A DNA stretch of 32,000 nt from Mycoavidus cysteinexigens (GTDB lineage Bacteria > Pseudomonadota > Gammaproteobacteria > Burkholderiales > Burkholderiaceae): NCBI GenBank assembly GCA_031963245.1, contig JASSUC010000016.1, forward strand, positions 15,800-47,799. Reading direction: 5' to 3'. Numbering within the stretch: position 1 is the first letter of the stretch; every line of letters begins with the position of its first letter. Made by a program: the position numbers and the translations under genes. Below the pieces are notes generated by a model. It was given only the letters and a program-made list of their open reading frames with translations. It was not told the DNA's origin and ran no database searches. This document shows, one piece after another, positions 4,002-30,571 of the stretch.

Positions 4002-4013
4002 TTTGCGACCGTA

Positions 4014-7814: not shown

Positions 7815-7875
7815 TGAGGAAGACCCCACTTCAAATACCGTATCAAAAATTTTGCTTAACTGGCTTGCAGAGAAA

Positions 7876-8352: not shown

Positions 8353-8416
8353 AACTTTGCGCTCCGCTCCAGATCCGCATTAATCTGCCTTCTGCATTTG
8401 CTATATCTCACCCTGA

Positions 8417-14700: not shown

Positions 14701-14818
14701 AATTGTCGGTGGGCTGATCATCAGCCAGGTCCTAACGCTCTTTACCACACCGGTTATTTATCTTGCTTTCGACCGCTTAGCACAGCGCTTTAAACGCCAA
14801 GCCCCAAGCATCCTATGA
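11708..14818 (+). CDS. mdtB: RND multidrug efflux permease, MdtB/MuxB family
   Basis: 1036 aa with extensive collinearity to recalled E. coli MdtB ([23 protein letters not shown]; [42 protein letters not shown]; [16 protein letters not shown]; [17 protein letters not shown]; [13 protein letters not shown]). Confidence 0.93.
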
Positions 14819-17800
14819 ATTTATCGCGTCTGTTTATTGCCCGGCCAATTGCAACCACGCTGTTGTCGGCCGGCATCATGCTCGCCGGCATTTTTGCTTT
14901 TTTCAAACTGCCGGTGTCGCCCCTGCCGCAAGTTGATTTTCCAACGATTTCGGTAGAAGCAAGTTTGCCAGGGGCCAGCCCCGAAGTCGTCGCCACCAGT
15001 GTCACCAGCCCACTCGAGCGCCGCTTGGGGCAAATCGATGGCGTCACCGAAATGAGCTCGTCCAGTTCAAGCGGCGCAGCGCAAATTATTTTGCAATTTG
15101 AACTCAATCGTAATATCGATAGCGCCGCACGCGATGTACAAGCCGCCATTAATGCCGCGCGCGCCGATCTGCCCAGTCATCTGAAACAAAACCCCAGCTA
15201 TCATAAAGTCAATCCGGCTGACACCCCGGTCTTAATCCTCGCGCTCACCTCACACACTCTAACGCGCGGCCAGCTCTACGATTCAGCGGCGACGGTATTG
15301 CAACAAGCGCTGTCTCAAGTACCCGGGATTGGTGAAGTCGCGGTCAGCGGCTCCGCCAATCCAGCCGTACGGATTGAACTTAACCCACATGCGTTGTCTC
15401 AATACGGGATAAGCCTTGAAACAGTCCGCAGCGCGCTCGCAGCGGCCAATCAAAATATGCCCAAAGGCGCTCTAGAGCATGGCCCTCAGCGCTATCAACT
15501 CTACACCAACGACCAAGCAACCCAAGCCAGCCAGTACCGTGATCTGATTATCGCTTACCGTAACGGCGCAGCCGTACGGTTAGCCGATGTCGGCAAGGTC
15601 AGCGATGCCGTTGAAAATGTACGCACGCTTGGCTTGTTGGATAACCAACCTGCCGTACTGGTAATCCTTTACCGGCAGCCGGGCGCTAACGTCATCGACA
15701 CCGTTGACCGCGTCAAGGCGCTCCTGCCGCAACTAGAAGCTGCGCTACCTGCAGCGGTGAAGATTACGACCATCGCCGACCGGACTAAAATCATCCGTGC
15801 TTCCTTAAAAGATGCTGGCTATACGCTGGCGATTGCGGTTGGCCTAGTGATTTTTGTGGTCTTCGCCTTTTTACGCAATGCTCGGGCAACCCTGATTCCG
15901 TGCATTGCGGTACCGATTTCACTCATCGGCACTTTTAGTGCCATGTACCTGCTGGGCTATAGCATAGATAACCTGTCGTTAATGGCGCTCACGGTTGCCA
16001 CTGGCTTTGTGGTCGATGACGCAATTGTTGTATTGGAGAATATTTCACGCCATATTGAAGCCGGCAAATCGCCGTTGCGCGCAGCTCTGACCGGCGCGCG
16101 CGAAGTCAGCTTTACGGTACTGTCGATTTCAATTTCGCTGGTCGCGGTTTTTCTGCCTATTTTATTGATGGGCGGCATCGTCGGTCGCATCTTTCGCGAA
16201 TTCGCACTCACGCTCTCACTGGCGATTGGCATGTCGCTACTGGTGTCGCTGACGCTCACCCCGATGATGTGCTCACGCCTTTTACGCGCGCGCAAAAAAA
16301 TCTCCACTGGACAACCCGCAGCAACGGGTCTAGCGCGTATTAGCAAACGCTTTTTCGAGGCATTGCAGCGAGGTTATCAGGATTCTCTCAATTGGTCGCT
16401 ACAGCGCCCCAAACTGATTGGGCTCATTTTACTTGCCACGATTGCGTGCAATATTTATCTGTATATCGCCATTCCCAAAGGTTTCTTTCCGCAGCAAGAT
16501 ACTGGCATTTTAGTCGGCAGCATCCGCGCCGACCAAAATACCTCATTCCAGTTGATGCAAACAAAGCTGGCGCAATCGATGGCAATCATCAACGCCGATC
16601 CTGCCGTCGACACTATCGCGGGCTTTATCGGTGGACGACGTGCCAATGCCGGCTTTATGATCATCTCATTAAAACCCCGCACTGAACGCCAACTGACCGC
16701 GGCGCAAGTGATCGAACGGCTGCGCCCAAAACTCAACGCGGTGGCCGGCAGCCGGGCTTTCTTATATGTCTCACAAGATATTCGGGTGGGCGGGCGGCAA
16801 AGCAATGCGCAATATCAATTTACTTTGCTCGGTGAATCCTCGGCTGAACTCTATCGCTGGGGGCAAAAACTCACAGAAGCACTGCAGCACAAGAACCAAC
16901 TGACCGATGTGAATAGCGACGCACAACAAAAAGGGCTAGAAAATATGATCGTGATCGATCGCGCTAGCGCGGCGCGTTTTGGCATAACCCCCGCACAAAT
17001 TGGCAGCACCCTGTATGATGCGTTCGGCCAACGGCAAGTGTCGACCATTTATAACTCGTTAAACCAGTATCACGTCATCATGGGGCTGGCCCCGCAATAC
17101 ACGCAAAATCCCGCATCACTCAATGATATTTATTTGCGTACGGGCAACAGCAACACCGTGCAAACGATGGTGCCGTTATCCGCATTTGCCCAGTATCAAC
17201 CGGGTTATACGCCACTTGCGGTGTTCCATCAGGGACTCTTTGCAGCAACCACCCTCTCATTCAATTTACCGCCCGATAAATCGCTATCCGATGCCACCGC
17301 ACTGATTCACGGTGCGATGAACGAAATCGGTGTGCCCGCCACCATCCATGGTAGCTTTGAAGGTACCGCCAAAGTTTTCCAGAAGTCATTAGCGAACCAA
17401 CCACTGTTGATTCTCGCGGCATTTATTGCAGTTTATATTGTGCTTGGCATTTTGTATGAAAGCACCATTCACCCTCTGACGATCCTGTCAACGCTCCCGT
17501 CGGCAGGTGTCGGCGCACTGCTTGCGCTGCTTTTATTCAACACTGAATTTAGCTTAATTGCACTGATTGGCGTCATACTTTTGATCGGGATTGTGAAAAA
17601 GAATGCGATCATCATGATCGATTTCGCCATCGCTGCAACACGTCGTGGCAGCACTGCGCGTGATGCCATTTTCAACGCGTGCCTATTGCGCTTTCGACCG
17701 ATTATGATGACCACCTGCGCAGCCATGCTAGGCGCACTGCCATTGGCATTCGGTCAGGGTGAAGGCGCTGAACTGCGGCGCCCGCTTGGCATTGCGATTA

Positions 17801-17904
17801 TTGGCGGCCTACTGGTTAGTCAAATCCTAACGCTGTATACGACACCGGTGGTCTATTTGTATCTGGAGCGGCTACGCGAGCGGTTGGCGCAGCGGCGCGC
17901 CTAA
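14815..17904 (+). CDS. mdtC: RND multidrug efflux permease, MdtC/MuxC family
   Basis: 1029 aa and the second RND paralog in tandem, as in mdtABC/muxABC operons. It carries the same AcrB-family motifs ([16 protein letters not shown]; [15 protein letters not shown]; [13 protein letters not shown]). There is an ATGA overlap with mdtB. Confidence 0.9.
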
Positions 17905-17908: not shown

Positions 17909-18643
17909 TCACAGCTGGCCACGATAGTGATAACGAGCGTATTTGAACAATCTCGCCACACGGCCAATGCGGGTTGGCTGGGCCAGCACTCGGTAGAGCC
18001 ACTCTAAACCTAAGTATTGCCATACTTTGGGAGCTCGTTTAACCGTACCGCTAAAGACATCGAAGGTGCCACCGACCCCCATATACAATGCATTTGGATA
18101 AATTTGCTGGCAGTTGCGCATAAAGAGTTCTTGTTTGGGCGAACCCAGAGCAACCGTGACCAGCGCGGCGCCACTCTCTTGAATCGCTTGAAACAGTGCT
18201 GAGCGCTCTTCCTCTTTAAAGTAGCCACTATGGCTACCCACAACCTTAACGCCCCAAGCCGCCACCAGCTTATGCTCTACTTTGGCTAACACCTCGGGCT
18301 TACCGCCCACGAGAAATATCGGTATGCGTCGCAAGCCAGCGCTTTTCATCAAAGCTTGCCACAAATCAACGCCAGCGATGCGCTGCAGACAAGATGCTGC
18401 GGCATACTTTCGCTTAATCGAACGAACAATGCTGATGCCATCGGCATATTTGTATTCGGCAGAGTTAATTAACTCGCTGAGGAGCGGATTTTGTTCCGCT
18501 AAAATTATTTTTTCAGCGTTAATCGCAACCAGCATACCTGTTTTCAATGCACCATCGGCCAGCAGGTAATCGACAAATTGAGCTTGCTCCTGAAAACCCA
18601 AAATGCCAATGCCGCGAATCTCATATTTTGGAATAGCACTCAT
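17909..18643 (-). CDS. wecG: UDP-N-acetyl-D-mannosaminuronic acid transferase (ECA lipid II synthesis), WecG/TagA/CpsF family
   Basis: From the internal ATG at 18643 ([11 protein letters not shown]...) the 244-aa product is collinear with recalled E. coli WecG of 246 aa (LVAINAEK; [17 protein letters not shown]; [16 protein letters not shown]; [12 protein letters not shown]; [42 protein letters not shown]). TGATG start/stop overlap with wzyE. The 58-codon upstream extension in the track ORF lies inside wzyE. Confidence 0.92.
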
Positions 18644-19968
18644 CAAACTCCTCCGATTTTTTGCTGCTTGTGCCGGCCAGCTATCAATAAACGGTACAAC
18701 AATTTGGCCAATAGCAGGCATGAGCCAAAGACCAAACAATAGAATCCTAGGCGCGAAACAAAGGAATCTAATCCCTCCCTGACCAAAATAACAATGTGAA
18801 ATAACAGGCCAAAGCAAAAAGCCTGGATCGTGGCGCTCGTATAGCGATTCTGTGTATCTCTGGCCGAGCGATATAAGCCATCAAGCCCTCTAATAATCAG
18901 ACCGACCATCATCGCCCCCAGCACAAAGAGCCACGCCCCCCCCATAATCAGAAACGATCCAATCAGGGTGGGTGAAAGTGCCACGGCAAAGTATTGCCGT
19001 ACCTGCCAAGTAAAATAATTAGCCGTATTCAGCACTAGGCTCGGACGTTCAGGCCATAACCATTGAGGAATATAGACATAGAAATCGCGAACAATTGGCG
19101 CTAACCCTTGGAAATCGATTTCACGATACCTCTCTAATAACAGCGCCAGATTTTCCCAAGGCGAAAAAGTGTCGCGCGTTAGGTAAAGCAGCGTCTCTAT
19201 CCGCTCCGCCCCCTGAACATTGAGCCCGTAACGCTGTAACGCCAGCCACGTCATCACGCCAATCGCCGCCACCCCAGAAAACAGCAGTGTTCTAAGCCGG
19301 ATATGATGATCGGCAATACCAATAAATAAAAACAAGGCGAATGACAAAGCGATATTGGCGCGTGTGCCCCCAACCGCAAAATAACTGAGTACGCCAAAGC
19401 TGATGGTGGCGACAAGAAACATTAGCCAAGATTTAACGCTCGGCCGCAGGAAATAAAGCACCAGCATAGCGGGTATAAAAAAATAGAAAAAGCGCTTAAG
19501 GGGAAGTAAAAAAAGATCTTTAGAAAAGAGGCGTTGGCCATAGCTACGTGAGCTAAAAAATAGCCAGCCATTATTTAGAATAAAGACCAGCAAAGCCACT
19601 ACAGCCATCAACGCCAGCAGCATCCACAGCAAATGAGTTTCTTCACGCTTCATGGTGAGCCAGGATGACCTTGAACGCCAAAACGGTGGCAGCTTAACTT
19701 TGTAGGTTGCGTAGTAAAGCGTATAAAAACCAGCCGGCAACAGCAACGCATACGCTAGATAACGCGGTGGTGAGATAGGCAAACCAAAATGCAGCACAAG
19801 CCAACAAGAGAACGGAAAACCAAGATAAAAAGTGGATAGATAAGCCAGCGAAAAGCATAGATTGAAACTAAATCCGACTAAGCGGAACTCACGATAAACA
19901 AAAGTCAGCACAAAGGCACCGGCTGCCAACCAGAGCATTAAAAGAACCAGAGAATTAGCAAGCGTCAT
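18643..19968 (-). CDS. wzyE: ECA polysaccharide polymerase (Wzy-type)
   Basis: 441 aa from the ATG at 19968, with a GGAGAG Shine-Dalgarno 7 nt upstream. It is collinear with recalled E. coli WzyE ([19 protein letters not shown]; GGTRANI; [60 protein letters not shown]; [10 protein letters not shown]; AKLLYRL). Confidence 0.92.
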
Positions 19969-21052
19969 CGAGCATCTCTCCATTGACAATCGCCAACGCG
20001 CGTTGCCAGCCTGTGATGTAATTAGGATTGAAAAAAGCAATCTGGGTCTGATCTAATTGAGTCATTCGGTGCTGGGTTTCACGCACAATCTCGGGGCTCA
20101 AGTCATCGCCATGAAATAACACTGGTACGCATTGCTCAGCAAGATCTTGCTGGAAAGGGTTTTGCCGGCTGATGACAAATGGGATACAGAATTGGATCAA
20201 CAAGCATAGTGTGCCAACCCCCTGCTGCCGATTAAAAAGAAAATAGCCCAAATCACATTGCATTAAGAGCTTTCTATATTCGTTAAAATCAATCACGGTA
20301 TTGATGAACTCGACCTGCTCCGGCGCAAATAATTTTTCAGCTTCGGCGCGAATCTCATTGCCATATAGATCGTTGCCCGATGGATAGCCAAAAGGCAGCA
20401 GGATACGCACCTGCTTGCCAAATTGCTGGTAAATCGCCCGCAATGCTTCAATATGGCGATTCGAGCGATCGCCAGAGTTGCCCAGCAAAATCGTCAGCTG
20501 CTTACTTGCAGGCTTCGGCAACCGAGGGAGAGTGTGTGCCGCTGGCATACGGGTCGGAAAATAAAGCAGTTGCATCGGAACCTGCGGATAGCGCTGCCGA
20601 TAATAAGCCAGGTCTCCGCGAGTAGCAAACACCCGCCCAACACGCCCTTGTACGCAGCGCCTTAACAAATAAAACAGCCTAAATCGAAAGCCAGTTGCAT
20701 CTTCATAAAGATCTGCCCCCCAAATATGCCAGCTCACTTGTGCTGCGCGAATGCGGCCAGTCAGGAGCAGGAGCCAAATACCTAGATTAAACTGACCATG
20801 AAAAAAGAAGCGCTGCTCACGGCACTTTTTTGCCAGCACGGCTACGGCCTTCGCCAGCGCTCGTTTATCCGCTAACACTCTCACCTGCAATGCCGGGTAA
20901 TTGCCCAATTGCGCCGGCTCTCGAGCAACCACCCAAAAACACAATGGCATTTTAGATGGTGGCAACTCTGGTGCAAGTATGTCATTAAAAAAGCTCAGCA
21001 CCGTCCGATTGTGGTGCTCAATATCAGAACCCAAAATATGGATGACAGACAC
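19955..21052 (-). CDS. wecF: TDP-N-acetylfucosamine:lipid II N-acetylfucosaminyltransferase (4-alpha-L-fucosyltransferase)
   Basis: 365 aa with a GTG start at 21052, directly after the wzxE TGA and with AGGAGGGAG upstream. It is collinear with recalled E. coli WecF (HILGSDIEHHNRTVLSFFND; QRFFFHGQFN; WHIWGADLYE; FATRGDL; LLYFPTRM; LGNSGDRSNRHIEALRA; CDLGYFLFNRQQGVGTLCLLIQ; GWQRALAI). Confidence 0.92.
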   Translation of the reverse strand: MSVIHILGSDIEHHNRTVLSFFNDILAPELPPSKMPLCFWVVAREPAQLGNYPALQVRVLADKRALAKAVAVLAKKCREQRFFFHGQFNLGIWLLLLTGRIRAAQVSWHIWGADLYEDATGFRFRLFYLLRRCVQGRVGRVFATRGDLAYYRQRYPQVPMQLLYFPTRMPAAHTLPRLPKPASKQLTILLGNSGDRSNRHIEALRAIYQQFGKQVRILLPFGYPSGNDLYGNEIRAEAEKLFAPEQVEFINTVIDFNEYRKLLMQCDLGYFLFNRQQGVGTLCLLIQFCIPFVISRQNPFQQDLAEQCVPVLFHGDDLSPEIVRETQHRMTQLDQTQIAFFNPNYITGWQRALAIVNGEMLDDAC

Positions 21053-22315
21053 TCACTCCCTCCTATTGCAATAGATGAAAAATAGGTACACACATAAAGC
21101 AAAATAAACCGCATACGTCGCCGCGTAAGCCTGTACAGTCCCAAGCGCACCGCCGATTGGAATCAACCAGTGCGAAAATAATAAGAGCAAACTAAACTGG
21201 AGCGTTTCTGCTAATACATAAAAACGTAGGGAGGCTTTCACAATGATTAAATAACCGAACACATAAGCACCTACTTTGAACACATCACCGCTCAGCTGCC
21301 ATGCAAAAAGATCGCGCATCGGCCTAAAGTCAGCGGAGAACAATACTCCAATCACCACATCGCGCAATAGCCACACACTGAAACTCAAGCCTAGCGCCAG
21401 CGGTAACAAAAAGCGTTGCGCCCGGCGAATCTCATACGCCAAATCTTGTTTGGTTTTGAGCCTAGCCAGGGTCGGCAGCAAATACACGGTAACCGGTGCT
21501 GTAATCAACTGTAGATAAGCATCCGATATCTTGCTCATGCCCTGCCAAATGCCAACCTCCTGCCAACTATAATGCGTCGCCAGCAACTGCCGTATCATGA
21601 CGTAAGCAAGCGGCAGCGTGAGCGAAGTGATAAGCGCCATTGCGGTAAATTTGAACAAACCACGAGCGAGGGTGCCATCCCATGTGAACTTTAACCCATG
21701 CCACGATATGACCTTGCGTTTAAGCAACGCTATCGCTGCCGGCAAGATCAACAACGCCGGCATCAATGCTAAGCCGATCAGCGCCCCTGCATAGCCACCT
21801 AGACGGCAAGCCAGCCAATATGCCCCCAGACCTAACAGACTGCCACTCATGACCGATAGCGCAGCGCCCTTCGCATCGCACCGGCCTTTTAGAATGGCCA
21901 AACACAAATTAGCAAAGGCAATACCGAATTGAATCAAGGCCACGACTCGCAGCACATCCTGCAAATCTTCGCGACCAAACAATAATCGACTTAGAGGGGC
22001 GGCAGCCCCTATCAGCACGAGCGCCAGTAACCCTGAAGAGCTAAGCACGATAAGTGCAGAGGTGCCAAACAAACGGTGCGAGCGGACTGCATCAAACTGA
22101 AATTCAGCAACGTATTTGGTCACCCCATTGTAAATACCCGCGCCAGATAACACGCCCAACACCGTGATCAGCGTCATAAAATTTCCGGCGCAGCCTACCC
22201 CCTCTGGACCAAAGGTCAGTGCTAATAATTTGATAAGCAGGAGTCCCACTGCCAATTTGATCAGGATGGCAGCCGTAGACCAGACCGAAGCTCGTGCTAA
22301 AGATAGTTTAGGCAA
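21053..22315 (-). CDS. wzxE: ECA lipid III flippase (Wzx, MOP superfamily)
   Basis: 420 aa, collinear with recalled E. coli WzxE of 416 aa (LARASVWSTAA; FGPEGVG.AGNF..LITVLGVL.GAGI.NGVTKYVAE; YSWQEVGIWQGMSKISDAYLQLITA; VYLLPTLARL; MRDLFAWQLSGDVFKVGAYVFGYLIIVKASLRFYVLAE). Confidence 0.92.
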   Translation of the reverse strand: MPKLSLARASVWSTAAILIKLAVGLLLIKLLALTFGPEGVGCAGNFMTLITVLGVLSGAGIYNGVTKYVAEFQFDAVRSHRLFGTSALIVLSSSGLLALVLIGAAAPLSRLLFGREDLQDVLRVVALIQFGIAFANLCLAILKGRCDAKGAALSVMSGSLLGLGAYWLACRLGGYAGALIGLALMPALLILPAAIALLKRKVISWHGLKFTWDGTLARGLFKFTAMALITSLTLPLAYVMIRQLLATHYSWQEVGIWQGMSKISDAYLQLITAPVTVYLLPTLARLKTKQDLAYEIRRAQRFLLPLALGLSFSVWLLRDVVIGVLFSADFRPMRDLFAWQLSGDVFKVGAYVFGYLIIVKASLRFYVLAETLQFSLLLLFSHWLIPIGGALGTVQAYAATYAVYFALCVYLFFIYCNRRE

Positions 22316-22508
22316 AGGCCACTCACATCTGCATTGCTGGGTTCAACTTTATGATTTAACCGCACTCCGTCTGTCCCTGATTAGAATTTTCTATCTTCGT
22401 GGTCTCTACAAACGGGGTCGATATGGCGACCACCCCGTTTACACTCTAAAATTTTCATCCTATTTCTTTAGAGATGTTATTCTAGCGTAGAATGATGCGA
22501 TAAAAAAT

Positions 22509-22526
22509 CTGCTGTTTAAACAGCAG
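22509..22526. promoter_or_regulatory. Perfect 18-bp palindrome in the wzxE/wecB divergent intergenic region (operator or leader terminator candidate)
   Basis: CTGCTGTTTAAACAGCAG lies 58 nt upstream of the wecB ATG. Read on the minus strand it forms a 7-bp stem with a 4-nt loop, followed by ATTTTTTATCGC, which has intrinsic-terminator geometry. Confidence 0.4.
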
Positions 22527-22583
22527 CATTTGTTAAGTCTATCTCTGCATGGATGATGGCTTCAAATCAAAGGCCGACAATCG

Positions 22584-23714
22584 ATGAAAAAAATATTAAC
22601 TGTTTTTGGCACGCGCCCGGAAGCCATCAAAATGGCGCCGGTTGTGCGTGCTCTTAGCAAACATACTCAATTTGAAGCTAAAGTGTGCGTTACCGCACAA
22701 CACCGACAGATGCTTGATCAAGTCTTGACTCTTTTCAATATCAAGCCCGATTTCGATCTAAATATCATGCAGCCAGGGCAGAATCTCTTCTCCATCACAG
22801 CCAACATCCTGGAAAGCTTCAAACCTGTGCTAATGGAATACCAACCTGATTTTGTTCTGGTCCATGGCGATACTGCAACCACCTTTGCTGCCTCGCTAAC
22901 GGCTTATTACTTAAAAATTCCGGTCGCGCATGTCGAGGCGGGTTTGCGCACCGGCAACTTGTATTCACCCTGGCCAGAAGAGGCCAATCGTAGATTAACC
23001 GGCACCCTGGCGCATTTACATTTCGCCCCCACAGCGCAATCACGCGACAATCTTCTGAAAGAAAATATCGCCGCTGAGCGTATCGTGGTAACCGGAAATA
23101 CCGTGATTGATGCGCTCTTAGAGGTTAAACAAAAAATCGTCAGCAACCCTGAACTGGCCACTCGCCTGGCCAAACAATTCCCACAGCTCAATCGCACACG
23201 ACAGCTGGTGCTCATTACCGGACATCGCAGAGAGAATTTCGGCGATGGCTTCGAACGTATTTGTACCGCCATCGCAACCCTTGCCAAACGCTATCCCAAG
23301 GTCGATTTCGTTTATCCGGTTCATCTTAATCCGAATGTGCAAGAACCCGTCCAACGCACCCTCAAAGGCATCAGCAATATTCACCTGATTGAGCCACTGG
23401 ACTATTTGCCGTTCGTCTACCTGATGATGCGCTCAACTCTGATCCTCACCGACTCGGGAGGCGTGCAAGAAGAAGCCTCATCACTTGGCAAGCCAGTCTT
23501 GCTCATGCGAGAAAATACAGAGCGCCCCGAAGCATTAGAGGCAGGTCTCGTACGTCTGGTCAGTACGGATATCGACACCTTGTGCCAACAAGTTAGTCTG
23601 CTGCTTGATGACCTAACCGAATATAACCAGATAAGCGCGCACGCTCATAACTTATATGGAGATGGCAAAGCATCTGAGCGCATCGTGCAAACGTTAGCTG
23701 CCTACCAAGCATAA
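22584..23714 (+). CDS. wecB: UDP-N-acetylglucosamine 2-epimerase (non-hydrolysing)
   Basis: 376 aa, the same length as E. coli WecB, and collinear throughout ([19 protein letters not shown]; [16 protein letters not shown]; DLNIMQPGQ; VLVHGDT.TT; [21 protein letters not shown]; [10 protein letters not shown]; TGHRRENFG; YPVHLNPNV; [28 protein letters not shown]; [10 protein letters not shown]). Confidence 0.95.
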
Positions 23715-23804
23715 TTAGACACGGGTAAAACACGGTGGGCAATTCACTCGACCCGCATCATACATTGATCAAGGGTTGGCAAATTTTTTGCTTAAAAAAT
23801 TTCT

Positions 23805-25100
23805 ATGAAACATACGAATTTTAAGAAAGTATGTGTAGTCGGTCTTGGCTACATTGGCCTACCTACTGCCGCGATACTGGCGTCCCGAAAAGTCAAAGTG
23901 GCCGGCGTCGATATCAACTCCCACACAGTCGACACGATTAATGCGGGAAAGATTCATATCGTTGAACCCGAGCTTGACATTATCGTGCGCGCGGTGGTGC
24001 AAGAAGGCTATTTAAAAGCTTCAACGCAACCTGAAGCAGCCGATGCATTCATCATCGCCGTACCGACACCTAGTAAGAAAGATCATCAACCTGATCTAAG
24101 TTATGTGCGCGCAGCAGCCGAATCAATCGCACCGGTACTCAAGCCAGGTGATTTGGTGATCTTGGAATCCACTTCCCCCGTGGGCACCACCGATCAGATG
24201 ATCGCTTGGCTCACCATAGCTCGACCCGATTTATCCTTTCCTAACCCCCAGCAAGAAAACGACATACCTGATGTCAATATCGCGTATTGCCCTGAGCGCG
24301 TGCTACCCGGCCAAGTCATACGTGAACTGGTGCAAAACGATCGCATTATCGGCGGCATAACAACCCGCTGTGCCCAGCGCGCGCAAGCGTTATATCGTGT
24401 CTTTGCGACAGGAAAACTGCTGACCACCAACGCCCGCACAGCAGAAATGGCTAAGCTGACAGAAAACGCTTTCCGTGATGTCAATATCGCATTCGCAAAT
24501 GAGCTTTCGCTGATTTGCGACCAACTCAGCATTAATGTATGGGAGTTGATTAAACTCGCCAATCATCATCCCCGGGTGAATATACTGCAGCCGGGTCCGG
24601 GCGTCGGCGGCCATTGTATTGCAGTTGACCCTTGGTTTATCGTCAGTCGCTCACCTGAGCAGGCAAAACTCATTCGAACCGCCCGACAAATCAATGACCA
24701 TAAGCCAGAATGGGTGATTAACAAAGTTAACGAAGCGATTGATCAATGTCTGGCAAGTGGTCAACGTGCGGTCCGCCAAGAAGTTGTCGTTGCCTTACTG
24801 GGATTAGCATTTAAGCCTAATATTGATGATTTTCGAGAAAGTCCGGCAGCGCATATTGCAAAAAAACTACTCGCGACTTCAGAGGCGCGCTTTATTGTGG
24901 TTGAACCTTTTATTGACCAGTTGCCAGCCGATCTAGCTCACGCCCACTTGGCAGAGTTAGAGCCAGCGCTAGCCGCAGCCGATGTCATCGCCGTCTTAGT
25001 CAAGCATGATTGTTTCAAAGCCATGATCAAACTGCTTAACCCCCCAGCACGCCTAATCGATGCTGTAGGGATCTTAGAAGACGCTGAGCATCTTCAATAG
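23805..25100 (+). CDS. wecC: UDP-N-acetyl-D-mannosamine dehydrogenase
   Basis: 431 aa, collinear with recalled E. coli WecC (VVGLGYIGLPTAA; GVDIN.HTVDTIN.GKIHIVEPEL; IIAVPTP; LESTSPVGTT; VNIAYCPERVLPGQV..EL..NDRIIGG; RTAEMAKLTENAFRDVNIAFANELSLIC; INVWELIKLANHHPRVNILQPGPGVGGHCIAVDPWFIV; GLAFKPNIDDFRESPA). Confidence 0.95.
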   Translation: MKHTNFKKVCVVGLGYIGLPTAAILASRKVKVAGVDINSHTVDTINAGKIHIVEPELDIIVRAVVQEGYLKASTQPEAADAFIIAVPTPSKKDHQPDLSYVRAAAESIAPVLKPGDLVILESTSPVGTTDQMIAWLTIARPDLSFPNPQQENDIPDVNIAYCPERVLPGQVIRELVQNDRIIGGITTRCAQRAQALYRVFATGKLLTTNARTAEMAKLTENAFRDVNIAFANELSLICDQLSINVWELIKLANHHPRVNILQPGPGVGGHCIAVDPWFIVSRSPEQAKLIRTARQINDHKPEWVINKVNEAIDQCLASGQRAVRQEVVVALLGLAFKPNIDDFRESPAAHIAKKLLATSEARFIVVEPFIDQLPADLAHAHLAELEPALAAADVIAVLVKHDCFKAMIKLLNPPARLIDAVGILEDAEHLQ

Positions 25101-25114
25101 CTTCTTTAACCGTC

Positions 25115-25166
25115 ATCAAATAGAGAACGTCCCCTCAATGATCAAATAGAGAGCGTTCCCTCAATG
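25115..25166. repeat. 26-nt tandem duplication (2 copies, 2 mismatches) spanning the stop codon of the beta-helix gene
   Basis: 25115..25140 is atcaaatagagaacgtcccctcaatg and 25141..25166 is atcaaatagagagcgttccctcaatg. The second copy encodes the gene's last residues IEGTLSI plus its stop. The extra copy would read IEGTFSI plus stop. It fills most of the 41-nt spacer between the convergent wecC and beta-helix genes. Confidence 0.9.
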
Positions 25167-27253
25167 CGGACTCTAGTACTGGATGGCGGTGCAACCGCAT
25201 CAAGCTGACCTTCCTCGATACGCCCTGTCTCAAGCAAAAATGAAGGCGGGGTAAAAGCGGCTGGAGCCAGTAAAATTTTGCCGCGCACAAAATGGACATG
25301 AGTGGCTTGATAGTGATTCACCCCATCCACTAACTGAATATGCGCTACGTTTGCGTGCGCTACGATGCTACGGTAAGGTCCTAAACGCCAATGGATCAGG
25401 CGATCATTGCCAACGCGAGACAATAGAGCGCCTTGATTGGCGGTATTTGACAAGACGGTATTACCGGCTAGGGTGAAGTGCTGCTCAGCGGTACCGGTTA
25501 AACATAGGGCAACATTTTCAATACGGCACGCATCTAATGTCATGTTATGCGCTGCGATCCACAGAGAAGCACTTGCTCGATTGCCCTCAAAAGTGCAATT
25601 ATTGAAGAAAATAGCACTGTGAGCATAAACCGAATTTCTTTCGACTGGCGGCAAGTGCGTTTGGCAATACCGGCCGAGATGATCTTCTGCGCTGCTGGTT
25701 AAATCATGCCGACTATCCAGCCTGAAACTACAGCCATTGAAGGTATTCAACCGGCAAGATAAAGCCGTATGCTGAACCAAGGTCAGTTCACTCGCCACCG
25801 TGCAGCCTCGCAGTTGAACTCCATCCGCATTAAGTCGCATAATGCCGGTATTGGGCCGGCCCTCCACTGGCAACACATGGACATCATCCAATGTTAGGTC
25901 AGTGACTTTCTCATTGGCAATAAAAAGTGTACAGGTGTGGTTGCGTACCGTAATGCGTTTGGCTGAAGCCCCCCACTGCTTGCCTGAATTAGCAAAAGAT
26001 ATCGCACCCACATTCCCTGAGTAGACTAGGTCATGCTCATATTGCCCGTGCGTCACAAAGGCGCCATCATGATCACCATTGCTATGACAATTTTCTACGG
26101 TGCAATATGCACTCGAAACAAAATCATTCAGATGCCGAGCATTGGCAGAGCTACACTCCAGAATATGCCCGTAAAGACAATGGATATGCTGTGCTAAGTA
26201 ACCCGCACCGCCATACTTGATGTTGACCGGATTGGTTAATGAACACCGTTCAGTGCGAAAGAATGTGCACCAGCGCCTGATAATGGCGCTCCAGAAAGTT
26301 CCCTCTGCATGAATTGCCGATACATTACAGGACACCGCATATTCAAACGCAATCGGGTGAGAGCCGGTATTTGGAGCCGTGCCATGTCCGCTAAAGCGCA
26401 TATTGCTAATATGGACCTGTTCAATAACCCTCACCTGCGCCCACCGGATCTGCCGCCCTGCTGATAAAGGCCAGCCATTTTTATAATTGACCCGAACCTG
26501 CTTTGCATCAATAATTTGGGTAATTTGGACTAACTTTTGCAGTTCTTTGGCTAAACGCTCGCCCGGTGCGTCAGACTCAAGCCGATACCACTGCCCAACA
26601 GAAAATTTGCTTGCATCACTAACCGGAAAAATATCAGTCTGTTCCGGCAAGACTGCATGCAAGGTGACCGTATCCGTATTGGCAGCAGGCTTACCACTAA
26701 AAAACAGCACCGCCGCCAAAGCGTTAATCTGTTTCGCACCAACCGGCTCAATCCCGAGTGTAGTCACCGTTTGACCTCCAAAATCCAGCGTCAGGTTGCT
26801 ACGATAAAAATGGTGGCGACGAACAAAATTGAGTGGCGTATGCGCCTCGATACGATGAATCGTAGGATCATTCACCATCGCCGCCAGCGCATCATCTGCA
26901 TTCGTCTCTGCATTAAAAACACCAAATTGCCTAAAATCGACAATCCCTTCATGCAGTTGAAGCCAGCGACCTTTAGCCTGGCTCACAGCAGCAATAACCG
27001 TGCCACCGTTGATCATCCGTTCAGAAGATGCATCCCAATAAGCCAGCATCCCGCCGCCGTCGCCAGCACTGTAATAACCTAATGTGATAACCACCGTACC
27101 GTCCCCCGGCTGCGTAAGACCTAATGCGATCAAAGCGGCAACTGACGTAACCGGTTTGATCGCATTTGCCGACAGGGTTGATTTTAAAGGCGCTAGAGCG
27201 AATCCACCGGCGGCCATGCCTAGAACTGTGCTTAAAAAATAACGGCGCGTCAT
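25142..27253 (-). CDS. Tat-signal secreted right-handed parallel beta-helix protein (pectate-lyase fold; putative periplasmic or extracellular polysaccharide glycanase/lyase)
   Basis: Start placed at the ATG at 27253, with a GGAGAGGAGAG Shine-Dalgarno about 8 nt upstream. This gives MTRRYFLSTVLGMAAGGFALAPLKSTLSANA|IKP, which has the twin-arginine consensus (T-R-R-x-F-L), a hydrophobic core and an AxA cleavage site. The N-terminal domain resembles pectate-lyase-superfamily or tailspike N-domains (GYYSAGDGGGMLAYWD...NGGTVIA...GRWLQL..G.VDFRQFG). The remainder is a series of PbH1-like coils of about 22-25 aa (HISNMRFSGHG; VSCNVSAIHAEG; CSLTNPVNI; CTVENCHSNGDHDGAFVTHG; ITVRNHTCT; LTLDDVHVL; VQLRGCTV; NTFNGCSF; FFNNCTFEG; MTLDACRIEN). 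Function is inferred from fold and context only. Confidence 0.6.
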   Translation of the reverse strand: MTRRYFLSTVLGMAAGGFALAPLKSTLSANAIKPVTSVAALIALGLTQPGDGTVVITLGYYSAGDGGGMLAYWDASSERMINGGTVIAAVSQAKGRWLQLHEGIVDFRQFGVFNAETNADDALAAMVNDPTIHRIEAHTPLNFVRRHHFYRSNLTLDFGGQTVTTLGIEPVGAKQINALAAVLFFSGKPAANTDTVTLHAVLPEQTDIFPVSDASKFSVGQWYRLESDAPGERLAKELQKLVQITQIIDAKQVRVNYKNGWPLSAGRQIRWAQVRVIEQVHISNMRFSGHGTAPNTGSHPIAFEYAVSCNVSAIHAEGTFWSAIIRRWCTFFRTERCSLTNPVNIKYGGAGYLAQHIHCLYGHILECSSANARHLNDFVSSAYCTVENCHSNGDHDGAFVTHGQYEHDLVYSGNVGAISFANSGKQWGASAKRITVRNHTCTLFIANEKVTDLTLDDVHVLPVEGRPNTGIMRLNADGVQLRGCTVASELTLVQHTALSCRLNTFNGCSFRLDSRHDLTSSAEDHLGRYCQTHLPPVERNSVYAHSAIFFNNCTFEGNRASASLWIAAHNMTLDACRIENVALCLTGTAEQHFTLAGNTVLSNTANQGALLSRVGNDRLIHWRLGPYRSIVAHANVAHIQLVDGVNHYQATHVHFVRGKILLAPAAFTPPSFLLETGRIEEGQLDAVAPPSSTRVRIEGTLSI

Positions 27254-27293
27254 AAGTAATCTCTCCTCTCCCTTAACACGCATCATATTCGAA

Positions 27294-27316
27294 AAAATTG
27301 ATTTTTTATCAATTTT
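27294..27316. promoter_or_regulatory. AT-rich 9-bp inverted repeat in the divergent promoter region between the beta-helix gene and the GT4 transferase gene
   Basis: aaaattgat (27294..27302), then ttttt, then atcaatttt (27308..27316). This is a possible operator; the sequence alone gives no further support. Confidence 0.25.
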
Positions 27317-27425
27317 CCCCTATAAGTGGAGACGAGTAATAAATAAAATTCGTGGGTCTTCTGCATAATGAATCTGATGAAAGAAGAGCTTCTTTAAACG
27401 TGTTGTAGCTAGAAAAATATTGACT

Positions 27426-28556
27426 ATGCTTAATTTCACGCTCAGCTTTACTGTCTCAACCCTGGTCATTTTTTTGATTGTGCGTTATCAGCATTTGCAT
27501 GGCCATTTATCGGCTGATCACAGCCTGTCCGGCCCACAAAAAATCCATCAGCAATCCGTACCACGTATCGGCGGCATTGCGATCCTCGCCGGCCTCACCG
27601 TAGCCGCCGGTCAGCTTTACCGCAACGATCCGCGCCTTTCGTTGAACATATTATCCCTCGTCGCCTGCGGACTGCCGGCTTTTTTAGCAGGCCTCACCGA
27701 AGACTTCACTAAACGCGTAACGCCATTCATTCGCCTCAGCTGTACGATAGCTGCCGCCGGCCTGGCCTATTTCTTGCTTGACCTTTATGTGACACGCACC
27801 GGCATTGCCCTGCTTGACTCGGTCATCGCTTATCCGGCTCTCGGCTGCCTCTTTACCCTACTTGTGGTCGCAGGACTGGCCAATGCGATTAACTGCATCG
27901 ACGGCATTAATGGCTTAGCTGCAATGATTACGTTTTTGATGTCGGCATCGCTTGCCTACGTTGCACAGCAAGTCTCTGACACGCTCATACTTTCGGCAGC
28001 ACTGATTATGATGGGCGCCATTCTCGGTTTTTTTATTTGGAATTTTCCGACTGGACGGATTTTTATGGGCGATGGTGGCGCTTATTTCATTGGCTTTATG
28101 TTAGGTGAATTATCTATTTTATTAGTCATGCACCATCCTGAGGTTTCTGCTTGGTACCCTGTCTTAATGCTACTTTACCCAATTTTTGAAGTGTGTTTCT
28201 CAATCTATCGCAGACGCTTCTTACACGGCACCTCAGCCACCTTAGCAGATGATCGGCATTTACATACATTGATTTACAAACGGCTCATGCGTCCAACGGC
28301 GAACGCACAAGGTACGCGCACGCTGACCCAGTGTAATGCACTGACTGCCCCTTACCTTTGGCTGTTATATTTGATTGCAGGGGTGCCGGCAACACTCTTT
28401 TGGCAGCATACCGCCGTGCTAGTTTGCTTCGCTATAGTGTTTATCGCAGCTTACGTCTGGCTTTACGCCAGTATTGTGCGGTTTAAGACACCATGGTGGC
28501 TATTGTTTGGCCGACATCGCACACGCATGCAAGCAAACGTTCCCACTAATGATTAG
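27426..28556 (+). CDS. Polyprenyl-phosphate N-acetylhexosamine-1-phosphate transferase, glycosyltransferase family 4 (MraY/WecA/WbpL family); probable initiating enzyme of the locus
   Basis: Polytopic membrane protein carrying the family motifs: PRIGGIAILAG; LTEDF (the D-D/E-D Mg site); NAINCIDGINGLA (NxxNxxDGxDGL); IFMGDGGAYFIGF; D..HLHTLI (the HIHH equivalent). By eye it is much less similar to E. coli WecA than the neighbouring Wec proteins are to their E. coli counterparts. The start is the ATG at 27426 or the TTG at 27420. Confidence 0.8.
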   Translation: MLNFTLSFTVSTLVIFLIVRYQHLHGHLSADHSLSGPQKIHQQSVPRIGGIAILAGLTVAAGQLYRNDPRLSLNILSLVACGLPAFLAGLTEDFTKRVTPFIRLSCTIAAAGLAYFLLDLYVTRTGIALLDSVIAYPALGCLFTLLVVAGLANAINCIDGINGLAAMITFLMSASLAYVAQQVSDTLILSAALIMMGAILGFFIWNFPTGRIFMGDGGAYFIGFMLGELSILLVMHHPEVSAWYPVLMLLYPIFEVCFSIYRRRFLHGTSATLADDRHLHTLIYKRLMRPTANAQGTRTLTQCNALTAPYLWLLYLIAGVPATLFWQHTAVLVCFAIVFIAAYVWLYASIVRFKTPWWLLFGRHRTRMQANVPTND

Positions 28557-28686
28557 CCTACGCTAGCAACCGGCTTAAGGCTATTCACCCGTAGCAAGTG
28601 CTGTCAGCCCTTCACGCCCACACAACACTTCGCTTAGAAAATTTTACGGATATACATCATAGCGTAGCAGCCGCATCAAGGATGCT

Positions 28687-29820
28687 TCAGGCAAAGTAGC
28701 GGGTAACAGCGTCTATCACAGCGCGGTGGGTAATATCTGTCATGTTATAGAAAAGCGGCAGCCGCACTAAACGCTCACTATCTTTGGTTGTGTATCTATC
28801 CTCACCATGGAAGACACCAAACCGTTGCCCCGCGGGAGAGCTATGCAGTGGAACGTAGTGAAAAACAGCCAGAATACCGGCGTCGCGCATCGCGCTAATA
28901 AAAGCATTACGATCTTTAATGTCACGCAGTTTGAGATAAAACATATGTGCGTTGTGGTCACAGTCTGGCGCAATAGCCGGTAGTTCAATGTGCCCTTGCT
29001 GCGCCAAAGACTGAAATGCCTGAAAATAGCCGTGCCACAATGCAAGACGGCGCGCGTTGATCTGCTCGACTGCCTCTAGCTGCGCCCACAGATAGGCTGC
29101 CTGTAAATCAGACATCAGATAGCTAGAACCGATGTCTCGCCACGTATATTTATCCGTCTGACCACGCAGGAATTGGTTGCGATTTGTCCCTTTTTGACGA
29201 ATAATTTCCGCTCGTTCGATCTGTTCAGCCTGGTTGATCAAGATAGCGCCACCTTCCCCACCCGCGGTATAGTTCTTGGTTTCGTGAAAGCTGTAACACC
29301 CAATGTGGCCGATACTCCCCAGCGCACGACCTTTATACGTGGCAGCGACCCCTTGTGCGGCGTCTTCTACCACCCACAGCTGATGTTGGTCAGCAATCGC
29401 CATAATTGCATCCATCTCACACGCAACGCCGGCATAGTGAATTGGCACGATCGCTCGAGTTCTGCTGGTGAGTGCCGCTTCAATCCGGGTCTCGTCTATA
29501 TTCATGGTGTCAGGACGCACATCCACAAAGACAATTTTGGCACCACGCAGCACAAACGCATTAGCGGTGGAGACAAAAGTAAAACTGGGCATCACCACTT
29601 CGTCGCCTGGCTGAATATCGAGCAAGATAGCCGCCATTTCCAGCGCTGCCGTACAAGAGGGGGTGAGCAGCACTTTGTGGCTGTGAGTATACTGTTCAAA
29701 CCACTGTTGGCAGCGTTGCGTAAAGTGACCATCACCATTTAGCACATTACTGGCTAACGCAGATTGGATATGGCCTAATTCAGTGCCGACCAGAGCCGGC
29801 GTATTAAATGGAATCATCAT
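28687..29820 (-). CDS. wecE: dTDP-4-amino-4,6-dideoxygalactose transaminase (PLP-dependent, DegT/DnrJ/EryC1 family)
   Basis: From the ATG-ATG at 29820/29817 (MMIPFNTPALVGTELGHIQSA) the product of about 377 aa is collinear with recalled E. coli WecE of 376 aa. Long identical runs include VLLTPSCTAALEMAAILLDIQPGDEV.MPSFTFVSTANAFVLRGAKIVFVDVRPDTMNIDET; HYAGVACEMD; VVEDAAQGV; YKGRALG.IGHIGC.SFHETKNYTAGGEGGA; KGTNR.QF.RGQ.DKYTWRDIGSSYLMSDLQAAYLWAQLEA; and EDRYTTK.SERL.RLPLFYN. The start lies 1 nt after the wecD stop. The upstream extension in the track ORF overlaps wecD. Confidence 0.95.
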   Translation of the reverse strand: MMIPFNTPALVGTELGHIQSALASNVLNGDGHFTQRCQQWFEQYTHSHKVLLTPSCTAALEMAAILLDIQPGDEVVMPSFTFVSTANAFVLRGAKIVFVDVRPDTMNIDETRIEAALTSRTRAIVPIHYAGVACEMDAIMAIADQHQLWVVEDAAQGVAATYKGRALGSIGHIGCYSFHETKNYTAGGEGGAILINQAEQIERAEIIRQKGTNRNQFLRGQTDKYTWRDIGSSYLMSDLQAAYLWAQLEAVEQINARRLALWHGYFQAFQSLAQQGHIELPAIAPDCDHNAHMFYLKLRDIKDRNAFISAMRDAGILAVFHYVPLHSSPAGQRFGVFHGEDRYTTKDSERLVRLPLFYNMTDITHRAVIDAVTRYFA

Positions 29821-29821
29821 C

Positions 29822-30571
29822 TCACTTATATAGCCAATAGGAAATTCCGGCCAGCTGAGCGCCACTGGCAATATAAAGGCTCATTGCACTCAGGTTGCTG
29901 GTTTGAGTTGCCACGCTTAACTGCTTGACATTGCGCGCCGCACACCAGTGCCGCGCAGCCTTGATTAATACTTTACCTAAGCCGCGGCCAGTCAAATCGC
30001 GGCGGACGGCTAGCAAGCCAATACGAGCTGCATCGGGCGTCAACTTGCGCACCGTGACAAAACCATGAATGCCGCTGGTATCTTCAATCACCAGGCAGGC
30101 ATGATCGAAAAGACCACGCACCGCATTTTCTGCCCAGACTTGGTAGAAGCGATCACGCTCCTCCTCCGTGTACCAAGGCGCACGAAAGCGGCTAGCAGCA
30201 AATAGCCCTTTGGCGACGGCACGTATAGCCAAGATATCCGGTTCAGAGGCAATCCGATAATTTTGCGTATCGGCTAATGCGTTAATCGGTAAGCTGAAAT
30301 CAGCCTCACCTTCGATAAATTGGAAGCCAAGCTTAACCAGCTGATCCAATAAGTCAAGTCGATTAGCTGGAATCTTGCTTTGTATAATATCGAAGTCTGT
30401 CAACACAATTTGCGCTAGCGACGTGCCTTGACGATCAAAAACCAACCTAGCGCACTTGCAAGCGAAAAATTCACTCTCCCATGCGAGCGGCTCAAGTTCG
30501 GCGCGCAATGGGTGCTCTTGATTACATGGTGCAGGTGCGCGTTGTGGTTCAATGATGCGATCTGATTGCAC
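29822..30571 (-). CDS. wecD: dTDP-fucosamine (dTDP-4-amino-4,6-dideoxygalactose) N-acetyltransferase, GNAT family
   Basis: 249 aa from a GTG at 30571 with a GGGGAG Shine-Dalgarno 8 nt upstream. It is collinear with recalled E. coli WecD/RffC (LEPLAWESEFF; LGFQFIEGEADFSLP; SRFRAPWYTEEERDRFYQVWAENAVRGLFDHACLV; ARIGLLAV; VATQTSNLSAMSLYIASGA....YWLYK). The N-terminus is about 20 aa longer than in E. coli, so the start is uncertain. Confidence 0.88.
   Translation of the reverse strand: MQSDRIIEPQRAPAPCNQEHPLRAELEPLAWESEFFACKCARLVFDRQGTSLAQIVLTDFDIIQSKIPANRLDLLDQLVKLGFQFIEGEADFSLPINALADTQNYRIASEPDILAIRAVAKGLFAASRFRAPWYTEEERDRFYQVWAENAVRGLFDHACLVIEDTSGIHGFVTVRKLTPDAARIGLLAVRRDLTGRGLGKVLIKAARHWCAARNVKQLSVATQTSNLSAMSLYIASGAQLAGISYWLYK

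Follow-up and report, generated by a model that had tools for sequence, protein, structure and literature searches.

How does a gene set regarded as the property of one bacterial order come to lie in the genome of a bacterium from another? The question is raised by a 32,000-nucleotide stretch of Mycoavidus cysteinexigens (contig JASSUC010000016.1, positions 15,800 to 47,799), referred to below as the window. Between positions 17,909 and 30,571 of the window, a preliminary description made from the sequence alone had noticed a near-complete set of genes for enterobacterial common antigen (ECA), which reviewers have called 'restricted to one order', Enterobacterales, and partly defining for that order (Rai & Mitchell 2020, PMC7439462). 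The host, however, belongs to Burkholderiaceae and has separate nuoC and nuoD genes. The reading that we favour, and consider likely, is that the island encodes an ECA-type (Fuc4NAc-ManNAcA-HexNAc) Wzx/Wzy surface-glycan pathway that was acquired from an enterobacterial-type donor, joined to a host-type transferase and kept by selection.

The core of the island consists of eight wec genes (Table 1). Their products are all intact and full length, exceed the NCBIfam equivalog cut-offs for the corresponding ECA functions, and are collinear in BLASTP with the E. coli K-12 proteins, which we took from the annotated cluster in NC_000913.3. The identities range from 44 to 73% (WecE, 73%; WecB and WecC, 63%; WecG, i.e. 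RffM, and WzxE, 60%; WzyE, 54%; WecF, 53%; WecD, 44%). The claim of eight intact homologues collinear with K-12 is thus borne out, and the possibility that the wecF, wzyE and wecD homologues belong to unrelated O-antigen families is contradicted by their scores. WecF matches PF07429 (glycosyltransferase family 56, GT56) from end to end, and the best PDB matches of WecB are the E. coli entries 1F6D/1VGV (513 bits), followed by 5DLD (466 bits). The likely start of WecG is Met62 of a 302-amino-acid (aa) open reading frame (ORF) that reaches position 18817. Of the sites that are invariant over 76 Enterobacterales, the Mycoavidus proteins retain 79–100%, including 95% in WecF and all 41 in WecD.

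Together, these genes cover the synthesis of UDP-N-acetylmannosaminuronic acid (UDP-ManNAcA) by WecB and WecC, the synthesis of dTDP-4-acetamido-4,6-dideoxygalactose (dTDP-Fuc4NAc) by WecE and WecD, the transferases WecG and WecF, and the flippase and polymerase WzxE and WzyE. The gene order from 17909 to 30571 is wecG, wzyE, wecF and wzxE on the reverse strand; wecB and wecC on the forward strand; a beta-helix gene (reverse); the initiating transferase gene (forward); and wecE and wecD (reverse). The wecD-wecE and wzxE-wecF-wzyE-wecG blocks preserve the E. coli order, and wecB is inverted relative to the latter block. A scan of the island for promoters and terminators gave results near the shuffled background (18 promoter-like signals against 20.2 expected; 24 terminator-like signals against 17.5, standard deviation 3.8).

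Table 1. Features of the window, with the genes of the island first and its surroundings below. Bit scores are followed by the model cut-off in parentheses.
Feature	Position	Strand	Remarks
wecG (rffM), UDP-ManNAcA:lipid I transferase	17909..18634	-	NF002980, 374 bits (323)
wzyE, ECA repeat-unit polymerase, 441 aa	18643..19968	-	NF002820, 575 bits (510); PF06899 end to end
wecF (rffT), dTDP-Fuc4NAc:lipid II Fuc4NAc transferase, GT56	19955..21052	-	NF002753, 539 bits (470); NF052570, 536 bits (525)
wzxE, lipid III flippase	21053..22315	-	NF011679, 607 bits (325)
wecB, UDP-GlcNAc 2-epimerase	22584..23714	+	TIGR00236, 505 bits (210)
wecC, UDP-ManNAc dehydrogenase	23805..25100	+	NF008286, 664 bits (459)
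secreted beta-helix protein, 714 aa	25142..27286	-	twin-arginine-like signal (RRYFL); PF13229 weak
host-type polyprenyl-phosphate N-acetylhexosamine-1-phosphate transferase (MraY/WecA family)	27420..28556	+	PF00953 match
wecE (rffA), dTDP-4-keto-6-deoxy-D-glucose transaminase making dTDP-Fuc4N	28687..29817	-	NF008687, 657 bits (375)
wecD (rffC), dTDP-Fuc4N acetyltransferase	29822..30571	-	NF008212, 284 bits (219)
nuoH to nuoA	566-8776	-	nuoC and nuoD are separate genes
tRNA-Leu(GAG)	8904-8988		upstream of nuoA
BamC/NlpB-like lipoprotein gene	between tRNA-Leu and the mdtABC-like genes
mdtABC-like pump genes (resistance-nodulation-division type, RND)	10485-17904
mdtC-like RND pump gene	14815..17904	+	native left border of the island
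second wzxE-like flippase gene, 3' end only	31782..32000	-	leaves the window; the contig stops about 156 bp further on

The polyprenyl-phosphate N-acetylhexosamine-1-phosphate transferase (PNPT) differs from the eight wec gene products in its affinities. It scores 80 bits against the WecA model TIGR02380 (cut-off 326) and is 28% identical to E. coli WecA, whereas it is 59–62% identical to proteins named 'MraY family glycosyltransferases' of Paraburkholderia, Caballeronia and Mycetohabitans, and 76% identical to its counterpart in Mycoavidus sp. B2-EB. Since its closest relatives outside the genus are Burkholderiaceae proteins, it is a gene of host type, and the foreign genes came to lie beside it or around it. 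Its product presumably initiates the repeat and is, by these matches, not the enterobacterial WecA orthologue. The preliminary description had listed a 'GT4' initiating transferase. Such an enzyme is indeed present, in the sense of the Pfam family Glycos_transf_4 (MraY/WecA type) and not of CAZy GT4, but its inclusion in the transferred set has to be given up, because it is host-derived, with 62% identity to Paraburkholderia.

Three further genes of the E. coli cluster were not found. A tblastn search with E. coli WzzE gave no match in the window or in the Mycoavidus loci L001–L003, the parts of the genomes that were searched, and the gene calls of the full B2-EB island include none of Wzz type. 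Likewise, rffG and rffH gave no matches in the window or in L001–L003, and neither is called in the B2-EB island. A supplementary table lists rmlA, rmlB, rmlC and rmlD for strain B1-EB (Sharmin 2018); this gives the genus a native way of making dTDP-4-keto-6-deoxyglucose and would account for rffG and rffH being dispensable. Their function is probably supplied in trans by the native rml genes, which are documented for B1-EB only. To say that the island encodes every step of the pathway is consequently an overstatement: it has none of wzzE, rffG and rffH, and for dTDP-glucose synthesis the pathway must draw on native rml genes.

The nature of the host is clear from the sequence matches of the flanking genes. 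By these, it is a Mycoavidus, a betaproteobacterial symbiont of Mortierellaceae fungi within Burkholderiaceae, with a G+C content of about 50%. MdtC, encoded at the flank, is 85–86% identical to its orthologues in Mycoavidus B1-EB and B2-EB and about 70% identical to that of Paraburkholderia; this Burkholderiaceae-type flank indicates that the host is a betaproteobacterial fungal endosymbiont, in which the wec genes are phylogenetically foreign. The gene calls confirm the separate nuoC and nuoD genes and the tRNA-Leu gene ahead of nuoA that had been noted earlier. The genome is thus non-enterobacterial, as had been claimed, although the organism is Mycoavidus and not Burkholderia proper.

One assembly record that matches the window also raises the question of an artefact, namely that sequence of an enterobacterial contaminant became attached to that of the symbiont within the assembly of a fungal genome. 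NuoD and MdtC match proteins of assembly GCA_016097855.1 exactly and at 100%, respectively, the former on contig JAAAIM010000227.1. This accession series is one that we take to be of Mortierellaceae fungal genomes. The contig, of 48 kb, carries eukaryote-style gene calls, which shows that a bacterial contig lies within a non-bacterial assembly. The same junction between the mdtC stop codon and wecG, however, is found in the finished chromosome of the cultured strain B2-EB, and the island occurs in at least four further independent assemblies or read sets (L002, L003, L083/L084 and L093). No enterobacterium is more than 58% identical and the composition is host-like. We therefore regard an artefact as refuted and give it practically no chance. 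The gene calls of GCA_016097855.1 are themselves of some interest: gene products are shorter than the gene ranges (for nuoF, 372 residues over 1304 bp), which indicates that the symbiont genes are mis-modelled in that public record.

Evidence that the island is an established part of these genomes comes from the same site in related strains, whose loci were reached through MdtC and PNPT matches. In the complete chromosome of B2-EB, nuo, bamC and mdtABC are followed by wecG, wzyE, wecF, wzxE, wecB, wecC, the beta-helix gene, the PNPT gene, wecE and wecD, and then by merR, an HU/IHF-like gene, pheTS, rplT, rpmI, infC and thrS. Site and gene order are identical to those of the window, with mdtC directly abutting wecG; in the window, the two stop codons are 4 bp apart. 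The type strain B1-EB (AP018150.1) has instead, after mdtC, transposases, a reverse transcriptase gene, an HNH gene and a NACHT-WD40 gene; over the 10 kb downstream of mdtC, neither wec genes nor remnants of them are present. Protein searches returned no WzyE or PNPT of B1-EB, though its MdtC did turn up. This agrees with a published table in which 'antigen flippase and polymerase' is scored absent in B1-EB and AG77 (Sharmin et al. 2018). A survey of relatives had been proposed for this locus; it places the island in B2-EB and several metagenome-assembled genomes (MAGs), while B1-EB lacks it at the same site. Presence and absence at a fixed site, together with the grouping of MdtC with Burkholderiaceae and of the Wec proteins with Enterobacterales, mark the region as a genomic island.

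Between the window and B2-EB, the synonymous divergence (dS) of the wec genes is 0.66–0.94, within the range of native genes (0.49–1.28). The ratio of nonsynonymous to synonymous divergence (dN/dS) is 0.09–0.26 for all ten island genes, for example 0.09 for wecE and 0.16 for wecG, the product of which is 77% identical to its B2-EB orthologue; for native genes it is 0.02–0.18. Relative synonymous codon usage (RSCU) of the wec genes correlates with that of the nuo genes at 0.88, as compared with 0.80 for mdt against nuo. No compositional anomaly of the island against the host was detected in G+C, G+C at third codon positions, RSCU or tetranucleotides, a comparison of low power, since E. coli wec genes already reach an RSCU correlation of 0.77 against the host. 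The earlier impression that the G+C of the wec genes is ameliorated to host level is therefore sustained, by a weak test, and host-like composition fits an old, ameliorated insertion. Neither an integrase nor repeats were seen at the island borders in the window, where no search was aimed at either. Taken together, native-like dS, low dN/dS and host-like codon usage indicate that the island is old, vertically inherited and under purifying selection. The low dN/dS across the ten genes also supports the suggestion that the pathway is in use.

As for the relationships among the lineages, seven of eight flanking native proteins give the topology (window,(B1-EB,B2-EB)), and an MdtC tree rooted on Paraburkholderia joins B1-EB and B2-EB in 221 of 300 bootstraps. 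The island thus lies at the same site on both sides of the Mycoavidus root, and the simplest explanation is that it is ancestral to the sampled genus and was lost in B1-EB.

Several observations weigh against this reading of a selected and ancestral pathway. The polarity of the loss depends on a three-lineage tree from eight linked genes, and the pairwise identities of MdtC disagree with the other seven native proteins. B1-EB lives in its fungus without the island, which is accordingly not essential for endosymbiosis. In MAG L083, the homology to the window goes no further than the PNPT gene and wecE and wecD are not adjacent, and in MAG L093 a NACHT-WD40 gene splits the island between the PNPT gene and wecE; these layouts suggest that the island is being rearranged and that its right half is plastic. 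On the biochemical side, WecG needs a lipid acceptor carrying pyrophosphate-linked N-acetylglucosamine (GlcNAc), whereas the substrate of PNPT cannot be read from sequence; the evidence for rmlA and rmlB is the published table for B1-EB alone, a strain without the island; and the structure, chemistry and linkages of the predicted glycan are taken solely from orthology to the E. coli pathway.

The loci of the related strains contain additional genes at or near the island. In the BRE MAG L083 (JASSUM010000033.1, 1-1431), the place expected for wecE and wecD is taken by a gene for a 612-aa protein, the C-terminal domain of which is phage Gp53-like. NACHT-WD40 genes of very large size (1461 and 1675 aa) lie at or inside the island site in B1-EB (L085, 13273-21981) and in L093 (11302-16329), and such genes may be involved in rearranging the locus. 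At 12150-14745, L002, one of the closest Mycoavidus MAGs, has about 2.9 kb between wecG and mdtC that is found neither in the window nor in B2-EB, and the same holds for L003, L083 and L084. This insert encodes a full-length WzxE paralogue (417 aa), which shares 66% identity with the main copy; in L002, a Fic-domain protein of 399 aa, bearing the motif HPYYDGNGRAAR, comes next; the insert of L093 contains the wzxE paralogue only and is cut by the end of the locus. In the window, a second wzxE-like gene appears at the right end. Its 73–76 aa fragment is 76% identical to the WzxE of the window, 75% to that of B2-EB, 68% to the L002 paralogue and 67% to E. coli WzxE, and B2-EB has no such gene at the matching position. 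Directly past wecD, at 30801-31385 on the reverse strand, the window encodes a 194-aa ankyrin-repeat protein (G+C 0.40); ankyrin-repeat proteins are typical of host-interacting effectors in intracellular bacteria. B2-EB has no counterpart there, and merR and the pheTS block come after wecD instead. The G+C content per kilobase is about 0.45–0.55 up to wecD and falls to 0.42 at the right end of the window.

The gene content of 17909–30571 had been given correctly as far as the eight wec genes and the transferase are concerned, but the 714-aa beta-helix gene within the same stretch went unmentioned. This gene is conserved in both Mycoavidus lineages, with 80% identity to B2-EB and a dN/dS of 0.12–0.17 (0.12 against B2-EB), and is co-inherited with the island. 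The protein falls into no assigned family; it has weak matches to phrog_4250 'EPS depolymerase' (E=0.007) and to the glycoside hydrolase of PDB entry 6c72 (E=0.53), and its orthologues bear a precomputed PF27114 Phage_tail_beta tag. On the strength of these matches, it is possibly a tailspike-like glycan depolymerase that cuts or trims the glycan. A single-sequence AlphaFold model of the protein was unusable (predicted local distance difference test score, 32). Judged from its genes, the island is accordingly a chimera that combines eight enterobacterial-type genes, a host-type PNPT and a secreted beta-helix protein.

Where did the eight genes come from? The nearest relatives of the wec genes and of the flanking genes alike are found in Mycoavidus genomes. 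In a scan of one genome per species, WzyE is 95–96% identical to proteins of the Mycoavidus cysteinexigens MAGs BRE-AD073 and BRE-NVP60, and the next matches, at 53–57%, are Enterobacterales or records that cluster there (Limnobaculum, Yersinia, Serratia, Proteus, Sodalis and others). Over all searches, the identities are 95–97% to BRE MAGs and 53–58% to the closest Enterobacterales. The 80%-identical protein of B2-EB is named by NCBI 'ECA oligosaccharide polymerase [Mycoavidus sp. B2-EB]'. In a library of 1.84 billion representatives clustered at 50% identity, 163 match WzyE, and none of these 163 is from Burkholderiales other than Mycoavidus. An exact-sequence look-up with the WzyE ORF of the window (from its upstream TTG start) and with the B2-EB protein found neither on record. 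Wide distribution and an existing annotation as ECA in the family had been named as grounds for refutation, and this applies in part: the locus is annotated in B2-EB, but it is not widespread.

A few of the records recovered in these searches call for comment. The title of L058 (JAWQUI010000007.1) is 'Pseudomonas lundensis I31', yet its wec cluster is Serratia-like and falls within Serratia in the trees, and P0055 is a WzyE labelled 'Martelella alba'; both look like mislabelled, contaminated or reclassified records rather than real ECA in those genera. L089 (1-12103, 25.5% G+C) has rho-wecA-wecB-wecC-rffG-rffH-wecD-wecE-wecF-wzyE-wecG, with no wzzE and no room for wzxE. It probably comes from an AT-rich, reduced enterobacterial-type symbiont, and its cluster looks like partial decay of the ECA pathway.

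To place the donor, we constructed a neighbour-joining tree from the concatenated eight proteins (2816 columns, 79 taxa, no Pasteurellaceae among them). Mycoavidus lies on a long branch, at 0.53–0.57 substitutions per site from every enterobacterial group, as against 0.42 for the deepest distance between families. In this tree it is sister to Sodalis in 48 of 50 bootstraps, a result robust to gamma correction and to restriction to slow sites, and six of the eight single-gene trees join it to Sodalis, Lonsdalea or Symbiopectobacterium. Taken at face value, this would point to an enterobacterial donor resembling Sodalis or Pectobacteriaceae, such as an insect or soil symbiont that was co-resident, to a transfer of fairly recent date and to subsequent fast evolution in the endosymbiont; the acceleration is real, for the Mycoavidus stem branch is long for the native MdtC too. 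However, when actinobacterial WzyE-bearing ECA-type sequences were used as an outgroup, the outgroup alone joined the same Sodalis branch in 44 of 60 bootstraps. The branches of Sodalis, Lonsdalea and Symbiopectobacterium belong to the longest in Enterobacterales, and the grouping behaves as long-branch attraction: Sodalis attracts any long branch, so the donor family cannot be named, and the Sodalis-like donor was rejected. With the outgroup included, Enterobacterales are monophyletic without Mycoavidus in all 60 bootstraps. The raw distances to all families are near equal, and a dS of about 0.9 between the two island-sharing Mycoavidus lineages excludes a recent event. A recent Sodalis-like transfer is, in our judgement, very unlikely.

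The rooted tree in turn suggests a donor that was non-enterobacterial or unsampled, with an ECA-type module older and wider than Enterobacterales, since Mycoavidus falls outside an enterobacterial clade with 100% support. In addition, six of the eight Mycoavidus proteins keep fewer of the enterobacterial-invariant sites than does any left-out enterobacterium, and ECA-type genes exist elsewhere. Actinosynnema has complete ECA-type operons, and Kineosporia and Amycolatopsis encode related proteins (WecF-WzyE or WzyE); more clusters occur at 62% and 38% G+C (L094 and L095); and wec sets are known from Pasteurellaceae, of which the trees held no sequences. On the other hand, the Mycoavidus proteins are far closer to Enterobacterales (0.63) than to the actinobacterial set (0.97), and the wecD-wecE and wzxE-wecF-wzyE-wecG blocks stand in enterobacterial order. 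Attraction between the two long branches of Mycoavidus and the outgroup could produce the outside position and hide a nested one. We think a non-enterobacterial donor unlikely. What holds up in the trees is that the Mycoavidus wec genes are closest to Enterobacterales and nested in no sampled family, so that of the earlier expectations for the Wec phylogeny, affinity to Enterobacterales is recovered by neighbour joining and nesting inside one of their families is not. An old horizontal transfer into a betaproteobacterium, the first of the explanations offered at the outset, is supported by Enterobacterales as the closest relatives outside Mycoavidus and by the same insertion site in B2-EB.

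The actinobacterial genes are of interest in their own right. Among the actinobacterial WzyE-family proteins of the 50%-clustered library, that of Amycolatopsis stands alone, that of Kineosporia is a WecF-WzyE fusion and that of Actinosynnema a WecF-WzyE-WecG triple fusion. The Actinosynnema operon (L091, 7061-14340, GCA_039533475.1, 74% G+C) reads wecB-wecD-wecE-[WecF::WzyE::WecG, 1023 aa]-wecC, and the fusion protein is 44–49% identical to Mycoavidus WecF, WzyE and WecG. The operon thus shares the enzyme families and the three-sugar logic of the Mycoavidus island, but its glycosyltransferases and polymerase are fused, its host is Gram-positive, no wzxE is adjacent in L091, and it is more distant from Mycoavidus than Enterobacterales are. 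Two clusters from Logan read-set assemblies are more fragmentary or more divergent. L094 (273-3377, 62% G+C) contains wecF-wzyE and a truncated wecG beside lnt. L095 (483-8816, 38% G+C) encodes a GT56 protein, Wzx, a WzyE-like protein, an extra GT1-family transferase, a WecG-like protein, PNPT and an RmlD-like epimerase; its proteins are 34–35% identical to those of the window from WzxE to WzyE, and its content suggests a four-sugar ECA variant.

ECA-type genes had also been reported outside Enterobacterales before. Aeromonas hydrophila 209A is flagged in the ECA literature as a possible case of horizontal transfer, and among Pasteurellaceae there are the H. ducreyi cluster (Banks et al. 2008) and nine dispersed wec genes in H. 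parasuis SH0165. The status of ECA as a hallmark of Enterobacterales is therefore softer than the preliminary description had it, with sets published in Pasteurellaceae and found here in Actinomycetota. The Pasteurellaceae sets resemble that of Mycoavidus in being wec homologues outside the order, which were read there as making a putative ECA-like glycoconjugate. Compared by description, they differ in that Pasteurellaceae are Gammaproteobacteria near Enterobacterales, whereas the Mycoavidus genes form a single island in a betaproteobacterial host, as opposed to the dispersed genes of H. parasuis. In the literature that we searched, which did not include the B2-EB genome paper, no paper links Mycoavidus to ECA, co-mention being incidental; nor does any link Actinomycetota to ECA-type clusters, the one co-mention of Actinosynnema and ECA merely citing an rffG paper.

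The closest known system is the E. coli K-12 cluster, with the order wecA-wzzE-wecB-wecC-rffG-rffH-wecD-wecE-wzxE-wecF-wzyE-wecG. The two have in common the eight orthologues, the order of both sub-blocks and the implied chemistry of UDP-ManNAcA and dTDP-Fuc4NAc with a Wzx/Wzy system. Unlike E. coli, Mycoavidus has a Burkholderiaceae-type PNPT for wecA and lacks wzzE, rffG and rffH; wecB-wecC stands inverted between the two blocks; a gene for a secreted beta-helix protein comes in addition; wzxE is duplicated in some strains; and the island lies beside nuo and mdtABC, while the E. coli cluster is downstream of rho. A different kind of comparison is offered by the O-antigen of Mycetohabitans (Burkholderia) rhizoxinica, the Rhizopus symbiont, which is likewise a surface polysaccharide of an endofungal Burkholderiaceae bacterium. 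This O-antigen is reported to ensure intracellular survival in the fungal host (Leone et al. 2010), and lipopolysaccharide and exopolysaccharide are described as key to recognition in the symbiosis and to its stability (Sharmin 2018). Its chemistry and genes are unrelated, in that it is a galactofuranose homopolymer made by an ABC transporter-dependent route (Sharmin 2018); it is a functional analogy only for why Mycoavidus might keep the island.

On the reading of an acquired and selected pathway, glycan synthesis would proceed as follows. The native PNPT would load N-acetylhexosamine-1-phosphate, presumably GlcNAc-1-phosphate, onto undecaprenyl phosphate. UDP-ManNAcA would be made by WecB and WecC, and its sugar added by WecG. 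Native RmlA and RmlB would supply dTDP-4-keto-6-deoxyglucose, which WecE and WecD would turn into dTDP-Fuc4NAc, to be added by WecF. The trisaccharide-lipid would then be flipped by WzxE and polymerised by WzyE, and the polymer attached either to lipid A-core, in the manner of an O-antigen, or to phosphoglyceride. Since WzzE is missing, the product should have no modal control of its length and no cyclic form; according to PMC13432762, cyclic ECA requires WzzE. As for its history, the common ancestor of the sampled Mycoavidus lineages would already have had the island, placed between mdtC and the merR-pheTS-infC block, and it would later have been lost in the B1-EB lineage, where insertion sequences and other mobile genes would now fill the site.

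With the island, a known system gains a new host lineage and a variant architecture, in which the initiating enzyme is of host type, WzzE is missing, the flippases are duplicated and a secreted beta-helix protein comes in addition. Neither the mechanism nor the kind of system is new, and the genes are already annotated in databases. Nevertheless, the presence of a complete and selected pathway of ECA type in a betaproteobacterial endosymbiont of fungi is a clear exception to the Enterobacterales-only statement in reviews (PMC7439462). It also corrects published tables in which Mycoavidus is scored without flippase and polymerase, a score that is right for B1-EB and AG77 only. Considered with the actinobacterial operons, it suggests that the evolutionary origin of ECA should be re-examined. 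A bolder idea, tentative and rather doubtful at this stage, is that Mycoavidus displays an ECA-type Fuc4NAc-ManNAcA-GlcNAc polymer as its main surface glycan within fungal hyphae, replacing the Burkholderia O-antigen, and that the module is an old mobile three-sugar cassette and not an enterobacterial invention. If so, deep-branching copies would be those of Betaproteobacteria, Pasteurellaceae and Actinomycetota, and the notion that ECA defines Enterobacterales would be wrong at the level of both gene and glycan.

For the biology of the genus, the strains provide a natural experiment: B2-EB is cultivable and has the island, and the related type strain B1-EB is without it. This pair could show whether an ECA-type glycan works without WzzE and an enterobacterial WecA, and whether it affects intrafungal life.

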